Below are positions 1,397 to 46,352 of a stretch of 46,352 bases of DNA, one piece after another. Every line of letters starts with the position of its first letter. Positions within the stretch are counted from its first letter, which is position 1. Under the pieces are notes generated by a model. It worked only from the letters and a program-made list of their open reading frames with translations. It did no database searches and was not told where the DNA came from. Source of the DNA: a virus (taxonomy: Duplodnaviria > Heunggongvirae > Uroviricota > Caudoviricetes); IMG/VR virus record IMGVR_UViG_3300035696_002535. One strand, 5' to 3'. A program made the translations under genes and the position numbers.

Positions 1397-1633
1397 TTAA
1401 TCCCTTAGTTCATAAACCTGTTCTGGAGAGTCTGGTGGGTCGTCATCATGACTGTCATCCACTTCAGGTTCTCTAGTCCAACGCAATTTGGTGGTTCTTA
1501 TATCATACCAAATATATATCCCGTGCTGATTTTTGCAAGCTATTAAAAACTCTTCCGGCTTTGCGGCGACAACACGGACCCACTCGCCTTTTTTATCACA
1601 AAGCTCCAGGTTTAGATCAGACCAAAAACTCAT
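1397..1633 (-). CDS. hypothetical protein
   Basis: ORF track; SD GGAG; follows promoter at 1653. Confidence 0.7.
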   Translation of the reverse strand: MSFWSDLNLELCDKKGEWVRVVAAKPEEFLIACKNQHGIYIWYDIRTTKLRWTREPEVDDSHDDDPPDSPEQVYELRD

Positions 1634-1652
1634 AGCTGTCTCCTTCCCTTCT

Positions 1653-1681
1653 AATATACTTTTTTGACGACCTAAATCTGC
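1653..1681 (-). promoter_or_regulatory. recurrent promoter: GCAGAT-17-TATATT with AAAAAAG before the -10
   Basis: One of 9 copies of the AAAAG-TATATT motif upstream of minus-strand operons. Confidence 0.65.
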
Positions 1682-1763
1682 AAAAAAAGTGATTTAAAAA
1701 AATAAAGCCCGAATCGTATATTAAAAGTATCGCAAGAGATACTTTTTCAAAAAGGAGTGATTT

Positions 1764-2051
1764 ATGGCTAAACAATCCATCAATGCTTGGCTGTCAATGA
1801 AAAACAGCCTTCAGGCTAGGCTGGCCGAGGTCAAAGGGATGAAGTCAGAGGCTTCCTATAGACTTATCTCCGATTATGACGGAAGGAAAGAAGTCAGAGA
1901 GCCAACGTACGACATCAAGCAGATCGACAAAAAATCCGCAGCTCTTACGACAGCTCTGTTCAAAATCGACAGAGCCATTAAAGAGGCTAATGCAGCCACA
2001 AAAGTCGAGCTTGATGTGGACTATGACGCTCTCGTCGCACCTATAGACTAA
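1764..2051 (+). CDS. small helical protein resembling DIP1984/DUF6847 family
   Basis: SD AAGGAG and upstream TATATT (1717-1722); YDIKQIDKK...IDRAIKEANAATKVE resembles the DIP1984 C-terminal segment (from memory). Confidence 0.5.
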   Translation: MAKQSINAWLSMKNSLQARLAEVKGMKSEASYRLISDYDGRKEVREPTYDIKQIDKKSAALTTALFKIDRAIKEANAATKVELDVDYDALVAPID

Positions 2052-4964: not shown

Positions 4965-5045
4965 ATGATACGGAGACTATTGGTTATGCTGAGCTGAAGC
5001 AGGTAGCCATCATGTGTCCGTATCGCAGATCTTCAGCCATTAGGG

Positions 5046-5072
5046 GAGCCTCAAGTACTTGGGGCTCTTTTT
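5046..5072 (+). terminator. rho-independent terminator
   Basis: gagcctcaa/ttggggctc stem, gtac loop, T5; lies between convergent operons. Confidence 0.7.
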
Positions 5073-5373
5073 ATACAACATGCATCAAAAGCCCTATTGC
5101 TATTACAGCAGCGTGTAGAAGCTGATCTTGCCACACGGTTTTCACGACATGCCAACGAGCCTTTAGCGAATCTATCAACATATGGGATGTGAACAAAAAT
5201 AATGCAAAAGGCCAACCCACATGCGCAAATATGACAAAAGTCGCTGTGTATATAGCGCAATGATACAAGAGCACCTCCCATGATTTCCCCTTATTCAGTG
5301 CCAACCAATCAGATTGAAAAGGAAAATCTCCTAAAAGATGGCAAGCTACTAGTAATAAAATTTTTTCTATCAT
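5071..5373 (-). CDS. DUF3307-type membrane protein
   Basis: HLLGDFPFQSDWLA...H...SHMLID...DQLLH pattern. Confidence 0.75.
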   Translation of the reverse strand: MIEKILLLVACHLLGDFPFQSDWLALNKGKSWEVLLYHCAIYTATFVIFAHVGWPFALFLFTSHMLIDSLKARWHVVKTVWQDQLLHAAVIAIGLLMHVV

Positions 5374-5385
5374 TTTATCCTCCTT

Positions 5386-5574
5386 TTAGTCGTGAAAGTA
5401 ATTCCCGGTCATTGAAAAGTCATCGTCGTCCCATGAGCTTTCTTTACGCTTTTTGGGTTTGGAATCTTCATCGAAATGGATATAGTAAGCAGTCATAGAA
5501 AAGTCCTCTTCCGGTTCTGAGGAGCTGTCATCATCCATCCATACACCGTCTCTTACACCAGGTCCGTACAGCAT
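5386..5574 (-). CDS. acidic hypothetical protein
   Basis: ORF track; SD AAGGAGG. Confidence 0.65.
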   Translation of the reverse strand: MLYGPGVRDGVWMDDDSSSEPEEDFSMTAYYIHFDEDSKPKKRKESSWDDDDFSMTGNYFHD

Positions 5575-5698: not shown

Positions 5699-5959
5699 GT
5701 GCGCATGACAGAATTAAAAAGACGTGAGTACAACGACGGCACTATGGAAATGGCCATTGGGAGAGCAGTAATGCAGATTGTATTTAAAATATGCGATACA
5801 AGAGGCCAAAATAAGAAGGATACTATAACTCGTGAACAAGAGGATAAGATGTTTATAGAAGCAATTAGAGAAGTGTTTAAAAATAGAAGGAAATTTACGA
5901 TAGGGATATTATCTGTCGATCCCGGTATCCCTGCAGGAGATAAAAATGATCCATTCTGA
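5699..5959 (+). CDS. hypothetical protein
   Basis: ORF track; upstream TATATT 5682-5687. Confidence 0.65.
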   Translation: MRMTELKRREYNDGTMEMAIGRAVMQIVFKICDTRGQNKKDTITREQEDKMFIEAIREVFKNRRKFTIGILSVDPGIPAGDKNDPF

Positions 5960-8548: not shown

Positions 8549-8568
8549 AGCCTCTACCTCCTACCAGT

Positions 8569-8597
8569 AATATACTATTTTATAACGTAAAATCCAA
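8569..8597 (-). promoter_or_regulatory. recurrent promoter TTGGAT-17-TATATT
   Basis: Read directly; 17-nt spacer. Confidence 0.75.
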
Positions 8598-8612: not shown

Positions 8613-8975
8613 TTGTTTGTAGACATGAAGCAGGTATCGAGCATACTCATAAGATTAGCTGAAGAGCTTAATGATCAAGCTATGGTGAATTCTGCCAGGA
8701 AATTCATAGAAGGTCTACTGAAATCCAACGATCTCAGCCAGTCTCAATTAGGAGCTTATAAAGTAAAGCCCAAAAGTGATTCGGGTGCCGAGGGGATGGT
8801 AACAGGAGAGCGTTCCTCGGGAGTTCGCCTGCAGTACGATGGGGACATCCAACAAGACGATTTGCTGGGGATATTAAGAGACAAGAAGTGTATGCATGAC
8901 GATAAAGAGATAGAAATTCAGCCAGAGAAGATGCCCGACAACGCCTCTTGGGGATACGCAGGGAAAATAAAATAA
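8613..8975 (+). CDS. hypothetical protein
   Basis: ORF track; start uncertain (internal ATG MKQVSS). Confidence 0.6.
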   Translation: MFVDMKQVSSILIRLAEELNDQAMVNSARKFIEGLLKSNDLSQSQLGAYKVKPKSDSGAEGMVTGERSSGVRLQYDGDIQQDDLLGILRDKKCMHDDKEIEIQPEKMPDNASWGYAGKIK

Positions 8976-8978
8976 AAC

Positions 8979-9158
8979 TTATGTCTTCTTTCTCTTTCCC
9001 AGCACCCATTCCAAAGCTTTTATTTTTGCAAGAGTTTCTCGTTCGCGGCGTTCCAGATAGTGAATAAGATCGGGGCGTATGTCTTTTGAGTCTCCTATCA
9101 ACTCTAAACCAAGTTCCATATCATCAATTTCTGCCTCGATCTCTTGCTGTGACTTCAT
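8979..9158 (-). CDS. hypothetical protein (59 aa, MKSQQEIEAEIDDMELG...)
   Basis: Hand translation; SD GAGG. Confidence 0.65.
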   Translation of the reverse strand: MKSQQEIEAEIDDMELGLELIGDSKDIRPDLIHYLERRERETLAKIKALEWVLGKRKKT

Positions 9159-9183
9159 ACATCCTCACATTCTGTTAAAAACG

Positions 9184-9357
9184 CTACTGACTGCCGACTC
9201 CAGTAATCATCGGTGGGGAAAAGTCTTCTAGTGATGCCACGTTCGCACCACGCCTTGGCTAAACCAGCATATCAGCCAGCAACACTACAGTATTTTTTCA
9301 ACTGTGAGCATTGTCCAGGACTTGTCAAAGACGGACTGACGCCTCCACAGCCAGTAG
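9184..9357 (-). ncRNA. candidate structured ncRNA (174 nt) directly after rnl1
   Basis: 10-bp closing helix CUACUGGCUG/CAGUCAGUAG; inner helices and three 7-12 bp hairpins; all three sense frames closed. Confidence 0.65.
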
Positions 9358-9361
9358 TTAC

Positions 9362-10552
9362 TTATTCCACGTATATTTCCATATCCTTAAGCTTCAACTT
9401 CTCGACCAGGTACTTCTCCAGGTGGGCTCGGGATTTGGCCTTTTCCATGGATTTAAAGAAGTCTAGAGCAGACTGTACCTTACCCTCGTAAAGCTGAAAC
9501 ATATAAGACGGGTTAGTAAGCTTCTGGACCCGTAGGGCAAACTCTTTCCGGTTTTCCTTGGTACGTTCCTTGGTAAGGTGTTCGGCCACATCCAAGGTGT
9601 CCTTGTTGAGCTGCTCAATATAAGCCAAATAACTTGCTTTTACCTTTTCAACAAATGGGGTGAACTCTTTGAAATAGCTCAGAAACTCGTTTTCATCCCC
9701 CTCCATTACAAGGCTCACTAAAGAACGAAGGCTCCTTCCAGCACGATCTTTAAGATGGTGTATGGCAACATAAGAAGGATTTTTGACTTTGACTCTCTTG
9801 TAGCTTAGACCGTCCTCGTCAGGAACAGAGTAATCCACGGCCACAAAACCCTCTTCTAGAGTGGCCAAACCTTTTGCAAGTTCTACAAGATTATCCTGAT
9901 CTCTAAAATCCACCACACCTGGCAGTGGGACCCCAAGAACAGTTGACTGCTGCTGAAGTTCTGACAATAAAAGCTCTCTCCAGGTAGAGACTTCACGCAT
10001 CATTAATAGATGTAAACTTCTCTCTTTGTAGATAGTAACAACCCTATTCTCTGGAGCCGTAAGTTCGAAATAATAGGTATAGGCTTTGTCGACCTTTTTA
10101 AGAAAGTCTGGGTACCTTTCAGCCGTTTTATAAAATAGATCCCGAAAAGATATGGAAAACAGCCCCACATTGGATGAGTTCTCGATCACGCTCCTGGTCG
10201 ACATCAACCACTTGTCTTTGTAGTTGAAATAGGAAATCAAAGACCCATCCAGCTTTTGAAGCCCTACAGCTTTCAGGAAGTCGAAACCATCCGTGATCTG
10301 GGGGACTTCTTCATAGTTGTAGAAGCGTTTAAAGGGATAGGACACTATATTCCAAGTATCCTTCTCCAAGATCAGTCCACGGCACTCCATTACAATTGGG
10401 TGTGTCTTGGGAGAATCTGTTTGGCTGTACCCTAGGCAAACGAGATCATCATAGAGGTTGTATTCGATTCCTAGTTCATCCTTGAGTTTATTCAGGGCTT
10501 GTTCAGCTGGAAGGCCAAATGATCGAAGATATTCTTGGACTTTGAGGACCAT
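9362..10552 (-). CDS. rnl1: T4 Rnl1-family RNA ligase
   Basis: CRGLILE...SYPFKRFYN, KLDGSLI, FELTAPENRVV, EEGFV, RVKVKNPSY. Confidence 0.9.
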   Translation of the reverse strand: MVLKVQEYLRSFGLPAEQALNKLKDELGIEYNLYDDLVCLGYSQTDSPKTHPIVMECRGLILEKDTWNIVSYPFKRFYNYEEVPQITDGFDFLKAVGLQKLDGSLISYFNYKDKWLMSTRSVIENSSNVGLFSISFRDLFYKTAERYPDFLKKVDKAYTYYFELTAPENRVVTIYKERSLHLLMMREVSTWRELLLSELQQQSTVLGVPLPGVVDFRDQDNLVELAKGLATLEEGFVAVDYSVPDEDGLSYKRVKVKNPSYVAIHHLKDRAGRSLRSLVSLVMEGDENEFLSYFKEFTPFVEKVKASYLAYIEQLNKDTLDVAEHLTKERTKENRKEFALRVQKLTNPSYMFQLYEGKVQSALDFFKSMEKAKSRAHLEKYLVEKLKLKDMEIYVE

Positions 10553-10571
10553 GTAAATCTCCCTTATAAGT

Positions 10572-10600
10572 AATATACTTTTTTAGACATCTAGATTCAA
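10572..10600 (-). promoter_or_regulatory. recurrent promoter TTGAAT-17-TATATT driving rnl1
   Basis: Read directly. Confidence 0.75.
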
Positions 10601-10601
10601 G

Positions 10602-10895
10602 TTAATTTTTTATTCTTTCTTCCACGGCATCCGTTATGCGTTTTAAGTCTTTCAAGATTCCAATAAGGTCGTCATATCCGCCCTCGCTTTGAAGTGAGTT
10701 TATGACCGCTTCTTCTTGTTTTTTATAAATCAGGAAATACTGATTGAAAGATTCTGGGTCTTCGTCCTCGCTTGATTGTTTCAATCTTTGAAGGATATCT
10801 CTCAAGCAATTAATATACAAAACAGATTGTTGTTTGTTCTCAGGTAAATCTTTCATTGCGGTTCCCTGCAATAAAAAGCCTTCTATCATAAACAA
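10602..10895 (-). CDS. hypothetical protein
   Basis: ORF track. Confidence 0.65.
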   Translation of the reverse strand: MFMIEGFLLQGTAMKDLPENKQQSVLYINCLRDILQRLKQSSEDEDPESFNQYFLIYKKQEEAVINSLQSEGGYDDLIGILKDLKRITDAVEERIKN

Positions 10896-10935
10896 AGCTA
10901 TAATAGAAGGCTATTAGATTTATCTGATGAGATTT

Positions 10936-21001: not shown

Positions 21002-21799
21002 TCATACCGCCTTTGTATGAATCTTATATTTCTTGTTAAAATCACGGATTATTATTCGGAACTCATTGGGTAACATTTTTATAACTGGAACTGCTAGGCT
21101 CTTCGGGATCTCATCATAGTAAGCCTGGGCTATAGCCCCTGAGATGCAAGCTTGGGTATCTGTATCCCCTCCTAAGGATATCGCCAGTCTTATGGTATCT
21201 TCATAATCATGCCCATCTAGAAAAGCGATAATCGCTTCTGGGACAGACTCCTGGCAGGCACTAGTGAAGTGGTAGTGAGGTCGAATTTGATCACAGGTTC
21301 TGTTTAAATCGTATCCAAAAGTCTTTGTCAGGATGCTACGGATCTCTTCCTTGGGAAGTTTTAAGCGTGCTAGGTATACAGCCAGAGCCGCTGCCTGAGC
21401 TCCTTTGATACCTTCTGGATGACCGTGGGTTACATGGGCGCTTCTTTCAGCTTCCTTAAGCACATCGTCCGGGGTCTCAAAAGCCCATCCTACTGGACTT
21501 ACTCTCATTGCACAGCCATTTCCAAAGCTGTTGATAGGCTCTATGGTGTCAGCTTTTACCCATTCTCGAAAAGCGGAACCGTAGCCTCTGTTTGGATACT
21601 TACGTGCATAGGATTTATACAAAGTGGCGTAGTCTCCACCGATGAGGAGCGCCTCAGAAGTGGCAACGGTTAAAACAGAATCATCAGTAAAGGTTGCCTT
21701 GAAAACATCATTCGTAACGAACATAGGAAAGTCATACTTTTTGAATCCTTGATGCTCAAAAATACTTCCTGCGACGTCTCCAATGATTCCGCCTATCAT
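21002..21799 (-). CDS. ADP-ribosylglycohydrolase (DraG/ARH family)
   Basis: GGIIGDVAGS, FTDDS, SFGNGCAMR, LGGDTDT. Confidence 0.9.
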   Translation of the reverse strand: MIGGIIGDVAGSIFEHQGFKKYDFPMFVTNDVFKATFTDDSVLTVATSEALLIGGDYATLYKSYARKYPNRGYGSAFREWVKADTIEPINSFGNGCAMRVSPVGWAFETPDDVLKEAERSAHVTHGHPEGIKGAQAAALAVYLARLKLPKEEIRSILTKTFGYDLNRTCDQIRPHYHFTSACQESVPEAIIAFLDGHDYEDTIRLAISLGGDTDTQACISGAIAQAYYDEIPKSLAVPVIKMLPNEFRIIIRDFNKKYKIHTKAV

Positions 21800-23298: not shown

Positions 23299-23991
23299 TT
23301 ATTCTTCATTATTACATTGGCAATGAGGATCCTTTTTCCAACAGCTTTTACAATAGTCCCCAGTAATCTCTGCTCTTTGTTCATCCGTAAGAGCAGCAAA
23401 AGCCTCTTTAACTATTGAGAGGTCCAAAGCACGGTTGCCTATGTTTTTAATAAACTCTTTAGGCACCTTATCCGTCATCCAAACACCGTTCTCTGATAAA
23501 TAAAACAAATAACCAGCCTCATCCATCTTTTTACTATCTATAACAAGCACGACTGGCTTCCCGTGTCTTGATCCTACTTTGTATGCTGTTTCATAATTTA
23601 ACGAAAGATGCACGAACTGTCTGCCTTTTTTCTCTAGACCTGTACTCCTTATAGCATCTAAAAACTTAATGGAAGTCCCGTGATAAAGTACGTCCGGGGG
23701 AACTTCAGGACTTAATCCAAGATCCACTTTCAGGGAATGCCCCTGGACTGCCCTTATCATCTGTTTATCTTCGCTGAAAGCGAATCTCTTTTTTTCGTTT
23801 GTATTGACAATCTCCTCTAATATGTCACGATTAAACGGCTCAGTACCACAAATTCCCTGAGCATTAGCCAGAGCAATCAGACTATTAACAGAAGCCCACC
23901 CGTTTGCATCCAGAGTGAGTCCTATGGCTTCTGGCTTATGTCGAAGGACTAGACTGAGAAATTTACTTCGAGATACTAATTCTGGCCTCAT
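23299..23991 (-). CDS. kptA: RNA 2'-phosphotransferase Tpt1/KptA with short Cys-rich C-terminal extension
   Basis: SKFLSLVLRHKP, KKRF, IRAVQGHS, LYHGT, FVHLS, NGVWMTD; start moved to MRPELV. Confidence 0.92.
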   Translation of the reverse strand: MRPELVSRSKFLSLVLRHKPEAIGLTLDANGWASVNSLIALANAQGICGTEPFNRDILEEIVNTNEKKRFAFSEDKQMIRAVQGHSLKVDLGLSPEVPPDVLYHGTSIKFLDAIRSTGLEKKGRQFVHLSLNYETAYKVGSRHGKPVVLVIDSKKMDEAGYLFYLSENGVWMTDKVPKEFIKNIGNRALDLSIVKEAFAALTDEQRAEITGDYCKSCWKKDPHCQCNNEE

Positions 23992-24002
23992 AAAAATCCC
24001 TG

Positions 24003-24335
24003 TTACCAAATGTCTCCCCATTTTTTTGTGAATAACGAAAAGACAGCTTTGATTATGTTTAACCCTACAAAAAACAAAATGGACCAAATAGTTCCAAATA
24101 CGGGATAATACAAAAGAAAAAATATTACCGCTGCAATTCCCGGTAACTTATCAACCCATTTTCCAAAAGAGGTACGTTCGGTTTCACGGTAATAATAACC
24201 TGTTTCGGTACCAAAAATAGATATATAGGGGGTATCATATTTTATCCAATGCCCCCCAGTTATTTTTGTCAGCAATGAGGCGGGAGTCCAATCATTTTTC
24301 CATAAGAACTTAAAAAGCTTTTTGATATTGTTCAT
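24003..24335 (-). CDS. membrane protein
   Basis: ORF track. Confidence 0.7.
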   Translation of the reverse strand: MNNIKKLFKFLWKNDWTPASLLTKITGGHWIKYDTPYISIFGTETGYYYRETERTSFGKWVDKLPGIAAVIFFLLYYPVFGTIWSILFFVGLNIIKAVFSLFTKKWGDIW

Positions 24336-25821: not shown

Positions 25822-26769
25822 TTAAACTGCGTTAATCTCTGCCGCAATGTCCTCTGCAAGTGATATCCCTTCGAAAGGTGGATAGTTTCCAAGGCCATCC
25901 GTTGCAGTCCCTAACTCTCGACCGACAGTACAAGAGTCTGTAACCCATATCTTACTGAAAGATGCGTTCTGAAATTTCTTCCACGCCTCGCAAGGAAGAA
26001 CCCCGTGAGTAGCGTAAGCACTAACGCTTGAGGCACCAGCATGAAACAAAGTCTCTTTACAGTTTATAAGAGTATCTCCATTTCGAATCATGTCATCAAT
26101 AATAATGATATTTGAACCTGTAACATCACGATGCCCTTCTTTGATCGTTACTACACGGTTCTCATCTTTTGTGCAAATTATGCAAGGATCAGGGAAAAAG
26201 GTATGAAATCTTTTTCTTGCCCCTTCGTCCGGGAAAGCGAAAATGTACTTCTTATGAATGTAGTGGAGTCTTCTAAAAAGTAAAGGTATAGCCGACTTTA
26301 GTTCTATGATAATCCCATCCGAATGAAAATGCTGAACAGCCAAAGAATGAATGTCATATATGATGAGCTTGGCAGGCCCACTTCCATGACAAGAAGGGAT
26401 AGCATTCAGCATGCGCATGAGCGTCTTTGCTGTTGCTATCTGCCCTGGTTCATCTACTCTCTCCATGGTGGCCGTAGGAAAATACGGCAGGAAGATTGTT
26501 AAAGATTTTGCACCATAATGAGGCAGAGCATACAGCACGCTTAACTGGGCAAAGAGGTTTTCGGGTTTCTCTAAACTCGCAAAAAAGAAAACATTAGATC
26601 CTTTAATTGCCGAGGGATCCTCAAACATTGTGTTAGGATAGTCATCTGCAAATTTTTTCCAACAAATTTCAGAGATACAGGTGTCTGGTGTATTTATGGT
26701 GTTTCTGAAAACTTTTACACCAAATTCTTTCAGCTCCGGGCACCACATCAGGGTCTTATTCATGATCAT
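25822..26769 (-). CDS. prs: ribose-phosphate pyrophosphokinase, class II (plant PRS3/4-like)
   Basis: WKKFADDYPN, LPYFPTATMERV, IYDIHSL, AFPDEGARKRF, IIDDMIRNGDTL, AYATHGV. Confidence 0.85.
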   Translation of the reverse strand: MIMNKTLMWCPELKEFGVKVFRNTINTPDTCISEICWKKFADDYPNTMFEDPSAIKGSNVFFFASLEKPENLFAQLSVLYALPHYGAKSLTIFLPYFPTATMERVDEPGQIATAKTLMRMLNAIPSCHGSGPAKLIIYDIHSLAVQHFHSDGIIIELKSAIPLLFRRLHYIHKKYIFAFPDEGARKRFHTFFPDPCIICTKDENRVVTIKEGHRDVTGSNIIIIDDMIRNGDTLINCKETLFHAGASSVSAYATHGVLPCEAWKKFQNASFSKIWVTDSCTVGRELGTATDGLGNYPPFEGISLAEDIAAEINAV

Positions 26770-31275: not shown

Positions 31276-31938
31276 CTAAGACTTTTTGTACAGATTATGG
31301 TTTTTGATATATTCCAAGATGTCTGGATTCAGATATCGTTTAACATACCCACTAGCCAATGTTAAACAAAGATCTGTCGAGACATTAACAGATCTATAGT
31401 GATAATTAGAAAGCAGATTTAAAGCATTTCTAAGGCTTGTAGAAGAGACGTTTGGAGTTGGTTCTTCCGGTATGAGCAACATATGTGGATGTTTGCAATA
31501 CCAGGCTCCTTTAGATTTTAATTCTATCCCAGCCCTCGGGATTACAACAAATCTAGCGATCTTTTTCAGTTTCTTGTACTCAAACCATTTGTCAAAACTG
31601 ACCGCGTTGTCCCCTCCAATAGCGAAATAATAGTCGTATTTTTCTTTCGCACCGCTCTCCGATAGGAGTTGTTTAGCAAGATAGTAGGTTTCACCACCAA
31701 GTTTATTTTTAATTTCATAGTTGGAGACTTTTATTCTGTTGTCACATTCAGCAACAATCCTGCACATCTCTAGGCGATTTTTTGCTGGAGCCATCTGTTT
31801 CCCGTACATGTGCTCGTAACAAGGCATTAAAAGTACTTTATCGAAGTGTTTCAAAAGAAGGCTCATTATGGCCACATGCCCGGCGTGAGGCGGATCACAA
31901 GAAGAACCTAGAATAGCCACTGATATTTTCTTTTTCAT
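31276..31938 (-). CDS. nadD: nicotinate/nicotinamide nucleotide adenylyltransferase
   Basis: GSSCDPPHAGH, IGGDNAVSFDKW, VSSTSLR. Confidence 0.88.
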   Translation of the reverse strand: MKKKISVAILGSSCDPPHAGHVAIMSLLLKHFDKVLLMPCYEHMYGKQMAPAKNRLEMCRIVAECDNRIKVSNYEIKNKLGGETYYLAKQLLSESGAKEKYDYYFAIGGDNAVSFDKWFEYKKLKKIARFVVIPRAGIELKSKGAWYCKHPHMLLIPEEPTPNVSSTSLRNALNLLSNYHYRSVNVSTDLCLTLASGYVKRYLNPDILEYIKNHNLYKKS

Positions 31939-36969: not shown

Positions 36970-38013
36970 TTAAAACCACTTGTCATAAATCCTTTGGTAC
37001 TCTCCGCTCTCCTGGAGCTCTAAAATAGCCCTATTGATCTTGGATCTCCACGGACTGCCTACAGGGAGAGCAAAGCCATAGTTCTGAGTCCGTATGGAGA
37101 ATGGAGCTACCATATAGCCCTTATTTTTACTTGCATATTGAAGTAGTGGAGGAGCATCAAAAATGACGACCTTAACCTTATCCAGAGCCAACAATTTCAA
37201 AGCCTCCGGCAACCCTTTAACTTTGATCACCTTGGAGCCTATGTTTTCATCCTGGATTACATCAGCCGCATAACAGTCCTCTACCGTTGCGATTGGTTTA
37301 TCCCTGAGGTCTTTCAAGCAAGTAACCTCAGAAGTGGTCCTATCAAACTGGATGTTATTTGTGATCATCCCCAGATAGTACGCAAAAAGGGATAGGCCAG
37401 TTACGATCATCATCCCTACCAGGATCTTCCCTACTGCCGTTTTTGCCGTCCTGTCACCATATCCTACCGTACTTAAAGTTACCAGGACAAAAAGACAATA
37501 GTCCAGGATAAGCCACAGAAAGAATTTGCCCTTATTCTCAGGCATCTTTCGTTCTATGACCCAGAATATACTACCCCATATCAAAGCGAAGGCTAGAATG
37601 ATTACAATGAGCCTTAAAACCCCATCCTGGGATATGGCGAACCAGATAGCATGCAAACTGCTCTCCTTATCGGCTTTTACAAGGGCTTTTATGTCCGCTT
37701 CCAGGTAAGGATGTGTGAAATCTAAAGACTTCTCCCGTTTTGAGGTTATCGTTATTCCTCCGATACCTAGATCTGCAGATCCAGACTTAACGTTGATAAA
37801 GATGTCTTTAAAATTAACCTGTCTATACTGATAGTTGGTCAATCCCACACGCTCAGAGATTTTATTGAAAAGGTCTATGTCAAAGCCATATGGTTTATGA
37901 GAGGAGTCTACCATAGCGCAGGGTTGGACTATGTCGCTATAGTTGACTATGAAGGGCTTTTCATTGCTGAAAGCTGAAATGACTAAGGCGAACATCAGCA
38001 GTTGTTTTTTCAT
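36970..38013 (-). CDS. GluR0-like ligand-gated potassium channel (split solute-binding domain around a TM-pore-TM unit)
   Basis: GFDIDL, GITITSKREKSLDFTHPY, filter STVGYGD, YGFALP...INRAILEL. Confidence 0.85.
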   Translation of the reverse strand: MKKQLLMFALVISAFSNEKPFIVNYSDIVQPCAMVDSSHKPYGFDIDLFNKISERVGLTNYQYRQVNFKDIFINVKSGSADLGIGGITITSKREKSLDFTHPYLEADIKALVKADKESSLHAIWFAISQDGVLRLIVIILAFALIWGSIFWVIERKMPENKGKFFLWLILDYCLFVLVTLSTVGYGDRTAKTAVGKILVGMMIVTGLSLFAYYLGMITNNIQFDRTTSEVTCLKDLRDKPIATVEDCYAADVIQDENIGSKVIKVKGLPEALKLLALDKVKVVIFDAPPLLQYASKNKGYMVAPFSIRTQNYGFALPVGSPWRSKINRAILELQESGEYQRIYDKWF

Positions 38014-43273: not shown

Positions 43274-43296
43274 AAAGCATACCTCCTTCTAATAGT

Positions 43297-43325
43297 AATA
43301 TACTTTTTTGTAATGAGAGATCCAA
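43297..43325 (-). promoter_or_regulatory. recurrent promoter TTGGAT-17-TATATT directly after cas2
   Basis: Read directly. Confidence 0.75.
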
Positions 43326-43636: not shown

Positions 43637-44668
43637 CTATTTCCATACAAACGGCGGATAGGCATTTAAATCTCCTCTTAGATATCTTGCAAACAAACAA
43701 GCTTGTATGTACGGTAATAGTCCTATTGATACCTTTTCTTCAATAAAAGGATGCTCAAGCTCTTCTTTTTTCCTTTCTTGGTATGTCTTTAAAACTTCCT
43801 TTCTAGTCCCTGTATCCATAAGGACGGCACCCGTTTCGGTTTTTTTAAATCCCTCTGGTCTAACCTGCTGACGGTTAATAAGAGTGAGTACTAGTCTATC
43901 GGCTAAAAATGGTCTTAACTCTTCCATAATGTCTAATGCCAGACTAGGCCTACCGGGGCGATCAGCATGAAGAAATCCTGATTGAGGATCAAGTCCAACT
44001 GATTCACATGCCCCTATGCAATCGTGCGCAAGCAAAGTATATGTAAAAGACAGAAGAGCATTTACATTATCTAAGGGCGGCCTACGGCTCCTTTCCTTAA
44101 AATAAAAATTATCTTTTTGGGTAATAATAAGCCTATCAAAAACTGAAAAGTATGTATGTCCTGCTTGGCCTTCTTTGCCACGAATAGAATCAAGGCTGGT
44201 TTCGTGTCTTGTTTCCCTAACAATATTTTTTAAGCAGTCAGAACATCTGGTTAAAGCATCCTTAGTCTCTATACCATCTGTTTCTCTGGCCGCTCTCAAC
44301 AGAACCGTACGACTATTGAGAAGTTTTCCTAAAACAAAAGTTTTTGCTATGTCGATTGTTTTCTGTATGTTGTCTGACCGTCTGTGCTGCTCTTTGCGAA
44401 GAAGGATGTTGCCAGAAACTGGACCTGTCACTCTAGATAAAAACTCCCCCGACTCTGTAAGAAATGACAGCGTCACTCCTTTTTCAGAGCACATCTTCAT
44501 GAGAGGGGGTGAAAACCCTACTCCTCCGATACAAACAATGCCCTCAAGATTAGCCACAGGAACCTGTATCTTCGTTTCTCTTTCTACCTTAACTACAACA
44601 GTTTCTCCTTCTTTCGACAAGTAAGATCCGGGCATTGTGACATAAAGAGTGTTTAAAAGATGTCTCAT
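43637..44668 (-). CDS. cas1: CRISPR-associated Cas1 (type I-C-like)
   Basis: LLNTLYVT, RGKEG, RSRRPPLDNVNALLSF, GFLHADRPGRPSLALDIMEE. Confidence 0.96.
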   Translation of the reverse strand: MRHLLNTLYVTMPGSYLSKEGETVVVKVERETKIQVPVANLEGIVCIGGVGFSPPLMKMCSEKGVTLSFLTESGEFLSRVTGPVSGNILLRKEQHRRSDNIQKTIDIAKTFVLGKLLNSRTVLLRAARETDGIETKDALTRCSDCLKNIVRETRHETSLDSIRGKEGQAGHTYFSVFDRLIITQKDNFYFKERSRRPPLDNVNALLSFTYTLLAHDCIGACESVGLDPQSGFLHADRPGRPSLALDIMEELRPFLADRLVLTLINRQQVRPEGFKKTETGAVLMDTGTRKEVLKTYQERKKEELEHPFIEEKVSIGLLPYIQACLFARYLRGDLNAYPPFVWK

Positions 44669-44671
44669 GAT

Positions 44672-45325
44672 TTACTCCTGATAAATATATTTTTCTAGAT
44701 ACTCTTTTGCATCTTTTTTAAATATTTTTGGCATACACACACCTATCATAGAACAGCTATCACAATGCTTTTCGTAGTGTGTTGGAGAAGTGATACCAGA
44801 GTCTATTATTTTGTGAAGTCGTTGAGACGCTTTTACTGTCTCTTTTCGCAATAATTCACTAAACTCAATCTCATGTCTTTTATGTTCAGAGCCATAATAT
44901 AGTGCTCCTTTTTCTATGCTTATTTTCAACATTTCCTCTAAGCACAGAGCTTGAGCACACAGTTGAACTTCGTCACTACTGTTGTTTTTAGGTTTACCTC
45001 TTTTATATTCTACCGGAAATGGTGACCACAGTCCTTTTCTATTTGCAAGTTCTATTCCATTAAGATCTGAAAAATGAAATTCAACTACATCGGCTACACC
45101 AGTAAGCCCTAAAACAAATGATTTTAATTTAAGTCCATGAGTAATCAACACGCCATTTCGAGCTTCGTCTCCTTGCTCGTGTACATTCGCATGAAGAACT
45201 CGTCCTTCAGAAGTTAGTCTATTTTCTATCCATATTTGTTCTACATGTATCAAACAGCATTGTCGTTCACAAAATAAAAGGTGCTGTAGAGCAGAGATAG
45301 GAAGAAAATCAGATTCTAAAAACAT
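44672..45325 (-). CDS. cas4: CRISPR-associated Cas4 (type I-C-like)
   Basis: ISALQHLLFCERQ, GVADVVE, PVEYKRGK, QLCAQALCLEE, CDSCS...C. Confidence 0.95.
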   Translation of the reverse strand: MFLESDFLPISALQHLLFCERQCCLIHVEQIWIENRLTSEGRVLHANVHEQGDEARNGVLITHGLKLKSFVLGLTGVADVVEFHFSDLNGIELANRKGLWSPFPVEYKRGKPKNNSSDEVQLCAQALCLEEMLKISIEKGALYYGSEHKRHEIEFSELLRKETVKASQRLHKIIDSGITSPTHYEKHCDSCSMIGVCMPKIFKKDAKEYLEKYIYQE

Positions 45326-45370
45326 AAAGTTTAATCCTTTTAAATTTTATAAATAGTTGGCATTAATAAC

Positions 45371-46352
45371 TTTTTCAGCCCCACTTAGGTGTGAGGAGTA
45401 ACTATCCCGATATTTGACGGGACGCGACCATTCCACTTTCAACCCTCACCTATATGTGAGGAGTAACATTGACATACCACCCAGACCCAGAACCCTTGGC
45501 CTTTCAACCCTCACCTATATGTGAGGAGTAACCGTTCCGGACTGACTTATCAGCTCGCAATGTGGCACTTTCAACCCTCACTTATGTGTGAGGAGTAACT
45601 AATTGGTTTTTGCAGGCTGCGGGTGCATCAAATCACTTTCAACCCTCACCTGTATGTGAGGAGTAACTCAACTCTTGCAATCTCCTTCTTGCCATTCTCA
45701 ACACTTTCAACCCTCACCTGTATGTGAGGAGTAACCTTAACAACATCGGCGGTGTCTACAAATCCTGGGCTTTCAACCCTCACCTGTATGTGAGGAGTAA
45801 CATACGATGACGCGTCATCTGTTGTAGACGTGGCCTTTCAACCCTCACCTGTATGTGAGGAGTAACGAATCATTCAATAGCTTTAAAAACCGAGCTCTAA
45901 CTTTCAACCCTCACCTGTATGTGAGGAGTAACATGGGAAGCCAACGGAGATGTGATACTCACCAAACTTTCAACCCTCACCTGTATGTGAGGAGTAACCA
46001 AAAGGAGAAGACCGATGCCGAATGTCTGTAAACTTTCAACCCTCACCTGTATGTGAGGAGTAACGTTTTTCTCTTGCAATTTTTGTTTCCTGCTCTACTT
46101 TCAACCCTCACCTGTATGTGAGGAGTAACATGGATGCACTTCGTGAGTTCCTGGAGAAGAACCTTTCAACCCTCACCTGTATGTGAGGAGTAACGGGAGA
46201 AGGTGTTCCACCAAATTCACCATCCACCCTTTCAACCCTCACCTGTATGTGAGGAGTAACGGCAATGGAAACGCGGCAGTGAATCCTCCGAATGCTTTCA
46301 ACCCTCACCTGTATGTGAGGAGTAACCCGACTGGCCTGCCACAATGTGACTA
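45371..46352 (-). CRISPR. CRISPR array: 32-nt repeat GTTACTCCTCACATACAGGTGAGGGTTGAAAG; 15 repeats, 14 complete spacers (33-36 nt) + 1 partial; truncated by window end
   Basis: Repeat starts on + strand: 45371 (degenerate), 45436, 45501, 45568, 45636, 45704, 45770, 45835, 45901, 45967, 46033, 46098, 46163, 46229, 46295; hairpin CCTCAC/GTGAGG; ...GAAAG 3' end and degenerate end set the orientation. Confidence 0.98.

Follow-up and report, generated by a model that had tools for sequence, protein, structure and literature searches.

A conserved, structured non-coding RNA element downstream of an RNA ligase gene in a small clade of huge phages

Introduction

Does the short intergenic region downstream of an Rnl1-type RNA ligase gene in an uncultured phage encode a functional RNA and, if so, what could such an RNA do? 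The question arises from the IMG/VR record IMGVR_UViG_3300035696_002535, a stretch of 46,352 nt (hereafter the window, positions of which are used throughout) that is part of the genome of an uncultured huge phage. Huge phages possess many RNA-repair genes, for which we know of no natural substrates. A preliminary description, made from the letters of the window alone, had placed a multi-junction RNA on the minus strand next to the ligase gene, and had considered it a tRNA-mimic decoy, a ligase substrate or a new class of non-coding RNA co-transcribed with the ligase.

The ligase is readily recognized. Its product matches PF09511 in a Pfam scan (E 3.2e-17), residues 51-373 match the T4 Rnl1 structures 2c5u, 5tt6 and 9do4 (E about 1e-16), and the KxDG lysine motif (K100/D102/G103) is invariant in 33 relatives. 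The window also encodes Cas4, Cas1, a CRISPR array, Tpt1, an ADP-ribosylglycohydrolase, Prs-like and NMNAT-like enzymes and a GluR0-like channel (Table 1). The genes for Tpt1/KptA, the ADP-ribosylglycohydrolase, the Prs-like and the cytidylyltransferase-like (NMNAT-type) enzymes are RNA-repair and NAD-related genes that all lie on one strand together with a second ligase-like ORF, which scores 25.8 bits for PF09414, just below the cut-off of 27 bits. Cas1, Cas4 and the array constitute a phage-borne CRISPR adaptation module (43637-46326), and the GluR0-like ligand-gated ion channel combines an SBP_bac_3 domain with an ion-channel pore.

Table 1. Positions of the features discussed in the text (window numbering unless a contig is named).
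Feature	Position	Strand	Remarks
Structured RNA element, first to last base of P1	9184..9357	-	174 nt; covariance model, MFE, alignment with L001 and L002
P1, 5' strand CUACUGGCUG	9348..9357	-	10 pairs, 96.7% of cells paired
P1, 3' strand CAGUCAGUAG	9184..9193	-	pair counting
P2, 5' strand (tentative)	9340..9347	-	partner 9214-9220; 7 pairs, 85.7% of cells paired
Conserved unpaired stretch UCAGYCC	9333..9339	-	part of the near-invariant UCAGYCCGUC
P2b, 5' strand GUCUUU (tentative)	9327..9332	-	partner 9223-9228 (GAAGAC); 6 pairs
Variable insert	9252..9326	-	two hairpins in the window; one unrelated hairpin each in L001 and L002
H3 hairpin GUGGUGC-GAACGUG-GCAUCAC	9231..9251	-	7-bp stem, 7-nt loop
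P5 hairpin CCGAU-GA-UU-ACU-GG-A-GUCGG	9194..9213	-	abuts P1 3' strand; 5 + 2 bp
GC and U-run (CGUUUUU) directly past P1	9177..9183	-	sequence
Rnl1-type RNA ligase gene	9362..10552	-	396 aa; stop codon 4 nt upstream of P1
Promoter-like site TTGAAT-17-TATATT, upstream of ligase	10572..10600	-	consensus match only
59-codon ORF, downstream of element	8979..9158	-	begins 18 nt past CGUUUUU; also called in L107
120-codon ORF	8613-8975	+	convergent with the ligase unit
Simple terminator-like hairpin	10877-10912	-	15 pairs, then UUUUAUU; strong
Tpt1/KptA	23299-24087	shared	Pfam
ADP-ribosylglycohydrolase	21002-21799	shared	Pfam
Prs-like enzyme	25822-26769	shared	Pfam
Cytidylyltransferase-like (NMNAT-type) enzyme	31276-31938	shared	Pfam
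Second ligase-like ORF	424-1035	shared	Pfam
GluR0-like channel	36970-38013		
Cas1	43637-44668		PF01867, E 2e-100
Cas4	44672-45325		
CRISPR array	45362 to window end		at least 15 repeats of about 32 nt, period 65-68
L007, RNA ligase genes, first interval	1436-2041		
L007, RNA ligase genes, second interval	5003-5439		

Homologs and their distribution

Among the 824 ligase relatives found in a large protein collection, only three exceed 62% identity, namely P0001 (83%), P0002 (79%) and P0003 (78%). The element is present on the contigs of the first (L001) and of the second (L002 and L003, the latter being cut). A further contig of 1.5 kb, L107, is near-identical to the window and differs within the element by one G-to-A change at element position 12. 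Hence, beside the window, the carriers amount to two independent metagenomic lineages and one near-identical contig. A covariance model (R1) built from the three lineages of the window, L001 and L002 scores them at 150-161 bits; in the window, positions 1-163 of the model match exactly 9184-9357 of the minus strand with 161 bits, so that the extent and the strand given in the preliminary description are right.

Beyond these lineages, R1 detected no further element in the neighborhoods of ligases with about 60% identity (L004-L008, L108), nothing at 80 IMG/VR ligase loci with 1.19 Mb in total, and nothing in three whole huge-phage records of 416, 128 and 169 kb; in the R1 search, ligase relatives with 30-62% identity lack the element altogether. 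It occurs as a single copy in each relative that carries it, and the rest of the 46-kb window contains no second one. Searches at the nucleotide level led to the same picture: positions 8900-9700 have no blastn match in phage GenBank records, and DNA patterns run on IMG/VR gave no match, one chance match within a coding ORF, and five chance matches, respectively. A pattern applied to a JGI contig set, which excludes the sample of L001 and whose gap N{3,5} fits L001 and is one base short for the window variant, yielded 12 chance matches, none of them with the 3' motif. Patterns run on GTDB genomes gave first no match and then 24 chance matches, all with at most 17 bits under R1. Two pattern matches at the ends of Hydromonas contigs were read and found to be unrelated to the element. 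A search of IMG/VR with the single ligase protein returned no relative. As far as can be seen from these sequences, the family appears confined to one small clade of huge phages.

One of the contigs without the element, L007 (61% ligase identity), is of interest in another respect. The Rnl1-type gene of this contig runs into the beginning of an Rnl2-type ligase gene (PF09414), with an RtcB gene 3.5 kb downstream; three types of RNA ligase are thus found on one contig of 7.6 kb.

A predicted fold with solid ends and a variable interior

In the predicted fold shown by the comparison, the terminal helix P1 closes a long arm (P2/P2b, the variable insert, and the hairpin H3) together with a 3' hairpin, P5; P1, P2 and P5 are joined without linker bases. 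The P1 helix of 10 bp proposed earlier stands up to the comparison with L001 and L002, its seventh pair being G-U, G-C and A-U in the three lineages. Of the two short hairpins in the preliminary description that are likewise confirmed, GUGGUGC/GCAUCAC (H3) recurs in every single-sequence MFE, is paired in 100% of cells, and has the form GUAGUAU...AUACUAC in L002, where both partners of three pairs have changed. The other, CCGAU/GUCGG (P5), is also paired in 100% of cells; its closing pair changes from C-G to U-A, and in addition to this compensatory change there are two covarying inner pairs, one of which reads U-G, A-U or C-G depending on the lineage.

The remaining helices are less certain. 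P2 (GUGGAGG/UCCCCAC) is kept loosely, with three mismatched cells and zero compensatory changes, and the single-nucleotide difference of L107 breaks one of its pairs. The helix AAGUC/GACUU, previously suggested as P3, exists in the MFE of the window but is not conserved and has no counterpart in L002. It shares its 3' bases with P2b, and the covariation resides in this competing pairing GUCUU/AAGAC, in which two of the six P2b pairs are changed on both sides. Because the consensus fold costs 3-10 kcal/mol relative to each single-sequence MFE, we consider P1, H3 and P5 as the solid parts of the predicted structure and P2 and P2b as provisional; the latter stay uncertain with only three lineages at hand.

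The interior of the element differs from one lineage to the next. The hairpins CAAUGCUCACAGU.../...ACUGUAGUGUUG and UGGCUGA/UUAGCCA, both part of the MFE of the window, turned out to be specific to it; constrained folds of L001 and L002 place one different hairpin there. The cloverleaf-like junction of three hairpins that had been proposed is therefore not supported, given that two of the three are lineage-specific and located within the variable insert. We also considered a pseudoknot between UCAG and the loop ACUGG of P5 and rejected it: L001 breaks two of its five pairs, and the varying loop base covaries within P5.

The fold of the window sequence taken by itself is no strong argument. The minus-strand MFE of -60.4 kcal/mol corresponds to a z of -2.19, six out of 200 shuffled sequences being as good, while the plus strand has a z of -0.45. 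This single-sequence statistic is modest, and the case against chance rests on conservation and covariation.

Selection, compensatory changes and the transcribed strand

Comparison of the three lineages gives 76-83% identity for the ligase proteins and only 43-53% for the 4-fold degenerate sites of their genes, i.e. near saturation. Against this background, the first (5') 31 nt of the element (77-87% identity) and its last (3') 68 nt (60-81%) are well conserved, whereas the 75 columns in the middle are 23-32% identical, which is random, and the sequence beyond the U-run is not alignable across lineages. The comparison with the near-saturated sites indicates purifying selection on both flanks; the middle apparently needs nothing but some hairpin. 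The unpaired stretch UCAGYCC is invariant in all three lineages except for a single Y, at the same level of divergence in the 4-fold sites.

Pair counting over the five helices of the RNAalifold consensus shows 94.6% of cells to be paired, and eight pairs are changed on both sides. Such a number is reached by at most one of 500 column shuffles, and in a control with partners slid by 1-3 columns it drops to between zero and two. With n = 3, the independent sequences are too few for a statistic of the R-scape type. Homologs with compensatory changes, and conservation beyond that of neutral sites, were thus found, as expected of a conserved structured ncRNA; of the two outcomes that were to count against the proposal, namely a lack of homologs with covariation and an assignment to a known family, neither was observed.

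The strand is revealed by the wobble pairs. There are 17 G-U cells and two A-C cells in the alignment, and since a G-U pair becomes A-C on the other strand, the RNA lies on the minus strand, i.e. the strand of the ligase. The folding energy alone does not fix the strand, and the antisense of L001 even folds better. The same counts, together with the compensatory changes in internal hairpins, bear on a possible role at the DNA level, be it that of a protein-binding site, a recombination hot spot or a miniature inverted-repeat element. In that case the two strands of P1 would be terminal inverted repeats, with recombination at this site as the source of the variable ORFs nearby. The 10-nt inverted ends, ORF cassettes that come and go exactly at the 5' edge, and the 10-nt direct repeat TGTTGAATAA on both sides of the cassette in L002 are in line with it. 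However, 17 against two cells shows selection on one transcribed strand, and the search for dispersed copies and for a target-site duplication at the element edges, both expected of a miniature inverted repeat, revealed a single copy in 46 kb and no visible duplication. We give this explanation very little credence.

The element is non-coding. All sense frames of the element in the window contain stops, as had been noted before, and the three lineages share no frame that remains open throughout; a coding function is excluded by the lack of any conserved ORF.

Position at the end of the ligase unit

The genes surrounding the element vary among the carriers. In the window, nothing lies between the ligase and the element, which is followed by the 59-codon ORF. 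In L001, the ligase is followed by one ORF of 119 aa, the element, and a convergent gene that ends exactly at the 3' edge of the element. The element of L002 is separated from the ligase by an ORF of 97 aa and another of 124 aa, whose product bears a lipoprotein-like signal, and an unrelated ORF follows 70 nt on. None of the ORFs around the element has a family match, and they are unrelated among lineages; the 59-codon ORF, too, matches no family and has no counterpart past the element in L001 or L002. Two features are nevertheless constant. Although the preceding gene is the ligase in the window, the 119-aa ORF in L001 and the 124-aa ORF in L002, the element starts 4-11 nt past the last stop codon in all three lineages, and GC and 5-7 U directly follow it in each of them (CGUUUUU in the window, GCUUAUAAUUUUUUU in L001 and GCUUUUUU in L002). 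On the basis of this arrangement, what is conserved is the position at the end of the ligase unit and not adjacency to the ligase. The specific tie to the ligase assumed in the preliminary description is accordingly not borne out, as one to two unrelated ORFs intervene in two relatives, and the element is absent at ligase identities of about 60% or less. The idea of a ligase substrate gains no support from these data, which do not speak against it either.

The two-ORF block of L002 deserves a comment of its own. The direct repeat that flanks it is found at 5182-5191, in the context of the ligase stop codon, and at 5896-5905, at the end of the 124-aa ORF, which suggests that the block was gained or lost by recombination at a microhomology.

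The beginning of the unit is probably marked by the promoter-like site 20-50 nt upstream of the ligase start, which has counterparts in L001 (3949-3978) and L002 (3951-3979); the window and L001 share the form TTGAAT-17/18-TATATT, and L002 has TTGTCT-17-TATATT. Consensus scans of the window, L001 and L002 predict neither a terminator-like site nor a promoter between the ligase and the element. The conserved site upstream and the absence of such signals in between support the view that the element lies within the ligase transcription unit. An independent promoter just upstream of P1 was considered and discarded, as the lineages have different genes there and nothing in common except GAAUAA-like stop contexts. 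The suggestion of a new ncRNA co-transcribed with the ligase thus survives in a weak form, as a conserved, structured, non-coding element on the ligase strand that belongs to no known family.

Some further signals in this region were noticed in passing. The 11-mer AGUAUAUUACU, which contains a -10-like TATATT, occurs exactly three times on the minus strand (10569-10579, 8566-8576 and 43294-43304), the first two copies being located 17 nt upstream of the start codons of the ligase and of a 95-aa ORF. It may represent a promoter signature of the phage; when mismatches are allowed, its count in the window is not above chance. The strong terminator-like hairpin at 10877-10912, which follows a 238-aa gene and lies upstream of a 97-aa ORF and the ligase, displays the form of ordinary terminators in this genome. 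Furthermore, the space past the 59-codon ORF is occupied by the 120-codon ORF, whose only Pfam hit is below threshold; if the 120-codon ORF is real, the ligase unit ends before it.

A position at the end of the unit argues for a function at the 3' end and against a 5' leader or riboswitch as well as against a cis-regulator of ligase translation. A same-strand ORF does start 25-70 nt past the U-run in the window and L002, but a leader or riboswitch for a downstream gene is scarcely credible, as the next gene of L001 is convergent and ends at the 3' edge of the element, as fits an end-of-unit signal, the downstream ORFs are unrelated across the three lineages, and Rfam offers no riboswitch match.

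Possible functions

The reading we favor, and hold only tentatively, is that the element is an operon-terminal RNA domain which forms the 3' end of the ligase unit in a small clade of huge phages. According to this model, transcription would begin at the promoter-like site upstream of the ligase and proceed through the ligase and any additional small ORFs; as the 3' strand of P1 emerges, it would zip with the waiting 5' strand just before the U-run, and RNA polymerase would end transcription at this point in at least a fraction of cases. Compact, multi-helical and paired at its ends, the fold would then shield the 3' end from exonucleases, and the element might be cleaved off and persist as a small RNA derived from the 3' end. 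The U-run, absent from the preliminary description, points to such a 3'-end or terminator role, and CGUUUUU is likely the 3' end of the RNA. What counts against a terminator is that P1 is long-range and that a spacer of 2 nt precedes the U-run, unlike in simple terminators such as the hairpin at 10877-10912. If the 59-codon ORF, which is on the same strand and has no promoter-like site of its own, is real, termination would have to be incomplete. Moreover, the conservation of UCAGYCCGUC and of the GA..A loop of P5 exceeds what a terminator needs and makes a second role likely, be it protein binding, base pairing or catalysis; these unpaired bases probably bind a protein or pair with another RNA.

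The same surplus of conservation can be read differently, namely as that of a stand-alone, trans-acting ncRNA, a scaffold like Y RNAs or tRNAs that binds a phage or host protein. Such an RNA would have a role in RNA repair as a ligase substrate, a decoy for an anticodon nuclease or a cofactor, and the end of the operon would merely be its site of synthesis. The paired ends and the 5-bp hairpin abutting the 3' strand of P1 resemble the topology of tRNAs and Y RNAs, an Rnl1-type ligase is encoded in the same unit in all three carrier lineages, and the window also encodes Tpt1 and the second ligase-like protein. We nevertheless regard this explanation, the main rival of the operon-terminal domain, as rather unlikely. 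Even at E up to 10, no tRNA, tmRNA, Y RNA or other Rfam family is matched, the loops are neither anticodon-like nor T-loop-like, and none of the 25 scanned window ORFs contains a TROVE/Ro60 domain. In two of the three lineages unrelated ORFs separate the ligase from the RNA, and ligase relatives with 30-62% identity, among them three whole records of 128-416 kb, do without the element. Sampling accounts, in addition, for part of the linkage to the ligase, since it was by way of the ligase that every homolog was detected.

A regulatory small RNA derived from the 3' UTR seems quite improbable. In this case, the 3' end of the unit would be cut off and UCAGYCCGUC would pair with target mRNAs. The near-invariant 10-nt stretch is partly placed in a predicted internal loop, and a hairpin with a U-tail is typical of the 3' end of such RNAs; yet the consensus model has half of these bases in helices, and the predicted fold is far more elaborate than that of known base-pairing small RNAs. 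Still less probable is a self-cleaving ribozyme of an undescribed class that would trim the ligase transcript and possibly generate ends for repair enzymes. The multi-helix junction, the conserved junction and loop bases and the insert of variable length give it the usual appearance of small ribozymes, and its intergenic location in a phage would fit; Rfam, however, reports no hammerhead, twister, pistol, hatchet, HDV or other match at E up to 10, and nothing in the sequence hints at a cleavage site.

What would these possibilities imply? That the element represents a new class of protein-binding or catalytic ncRNA working with the RNA-repair enzymes of the phage (Rnl1-type ligase, Tpt1) appears improbable to us. 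Under such a repair-linked reading, it could be a substrate that is cut and resealed or circularized via its paired ends, or a decoy for RNA-cutting defense nucleases of the host. An element that seems to share a transcript with an Rnl1-type ligase is in any case a concrete candidate for binding, ligation and cleavage assays. If the plainer reading of an operon-terminal domain is true, we are dealing with an unusual terminator whose long-range helix encloses some 150 nt of structure under selection, and which would extend our knowledge of how phage transcripts end and are stabilized. With three lineages of one uncultured clade, the reach of either is small for now.

Comparison with known RNA families and signals

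The element is, on sequence comparison, an uncatalogued RNA structure of narrow distribution. At gathering score, Rfam (15), with its models of ribozymes, riboswitches, Y RNA, 6S, GOLLD/ROOL and other RNAs, has no match in the whole window, and relaxing the limit to E up to 10 brings up, for the elements of the three lineages, nothing beyond unrelated and inconsistent matches that do not exceed 21 bits. The orphan structured-RNA candidates catalogued from viruses and phages (PMC10690425) are related in kind, the element being a conserved intergenic RNA structure of a phage with covariation support and without an assigned function. The element is unlikely to be among them, judging from four pattern scans of IMG/VR, in which no copy was found.

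A kinship with tRNAs, the more specific claim of the preliminary description, finds no support. ARAGORN predicts no tRNA or tmRNA gene in the window, and neither the Rfam tRNA family (RF00005) nor tmRNA matches even at E up to 10. The loop of H3, which is CAGCGCA in L002 and GAACGUG in L001 as in the window, shows neither the U33/R37 signature of an anticodon loop (position 2 U, position 6 a purine) nor the T-loop motif UUCRANY; the loop of P5 reads GAYNACUKGA. The bacterial Y RNAs (YrlA/YrlB with Rsr/Ro60; RF02553) resemble the element in their terminal stem of paired 5' and 3' ends and in the structured modules above it, and here, too, RNA-repair genes are found in the same phage. In contrast to them, the element lacks an Rfam match, a tRNA-like module and the CAGCAA signature (in none of the three sequences). 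A TROVE/Ro60 gene is likewise missing among the 25 ORFs scanned against Pfam in the window, which is part of the genome only; of the four window ORFs with at least 389 aa, three fall into other families and the fourth is without a match.

The gain and loss of small ORFs at the edge of a non-coding structured signal between related phages is reminiscent of the PeSL (promoter-early stem-loop) cassettes of T4-like phages, but the element is single-copy, much larger, multi-helical, and located at the end of a unit rather than at a promoter. The 3'-UTR-derived small RNAs of enterobacteria, such as CpxQ and SroC, originate from the 3' end of an mRNA and share its terminator. The element is likewise found at what is probably the 3' end of an mRNA, with a terminator-like end and a short possible seed. 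It differs in its size of about 175 nt with five or more helices, and no processing site, Hfq dependence or target is known for it.

Intrinsic terminators and 3'-end stabilizers of phage and bacterial operons share several features with the element. Like them, it lies where a unit ends, directly behind the last stop codon, and a helix (the 10-bp P1) is followed within 2 nt by 5-7 U in all three lineages. Its flanks, A-rich on the 5' side and U-rich on the 3' side, would even permit bidirectional use in L001 and L002. The helix is, however, long-range, and a consensus scan that expects loops of 3-8 nt makes no call; in this respect the element is quite different from the simple terminators of the same genome. 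Instead of a loop of 3-8 nt, P1 closes about 150 nt of conserved structure, and this structure retains unpaired bases that are themselves under selection.
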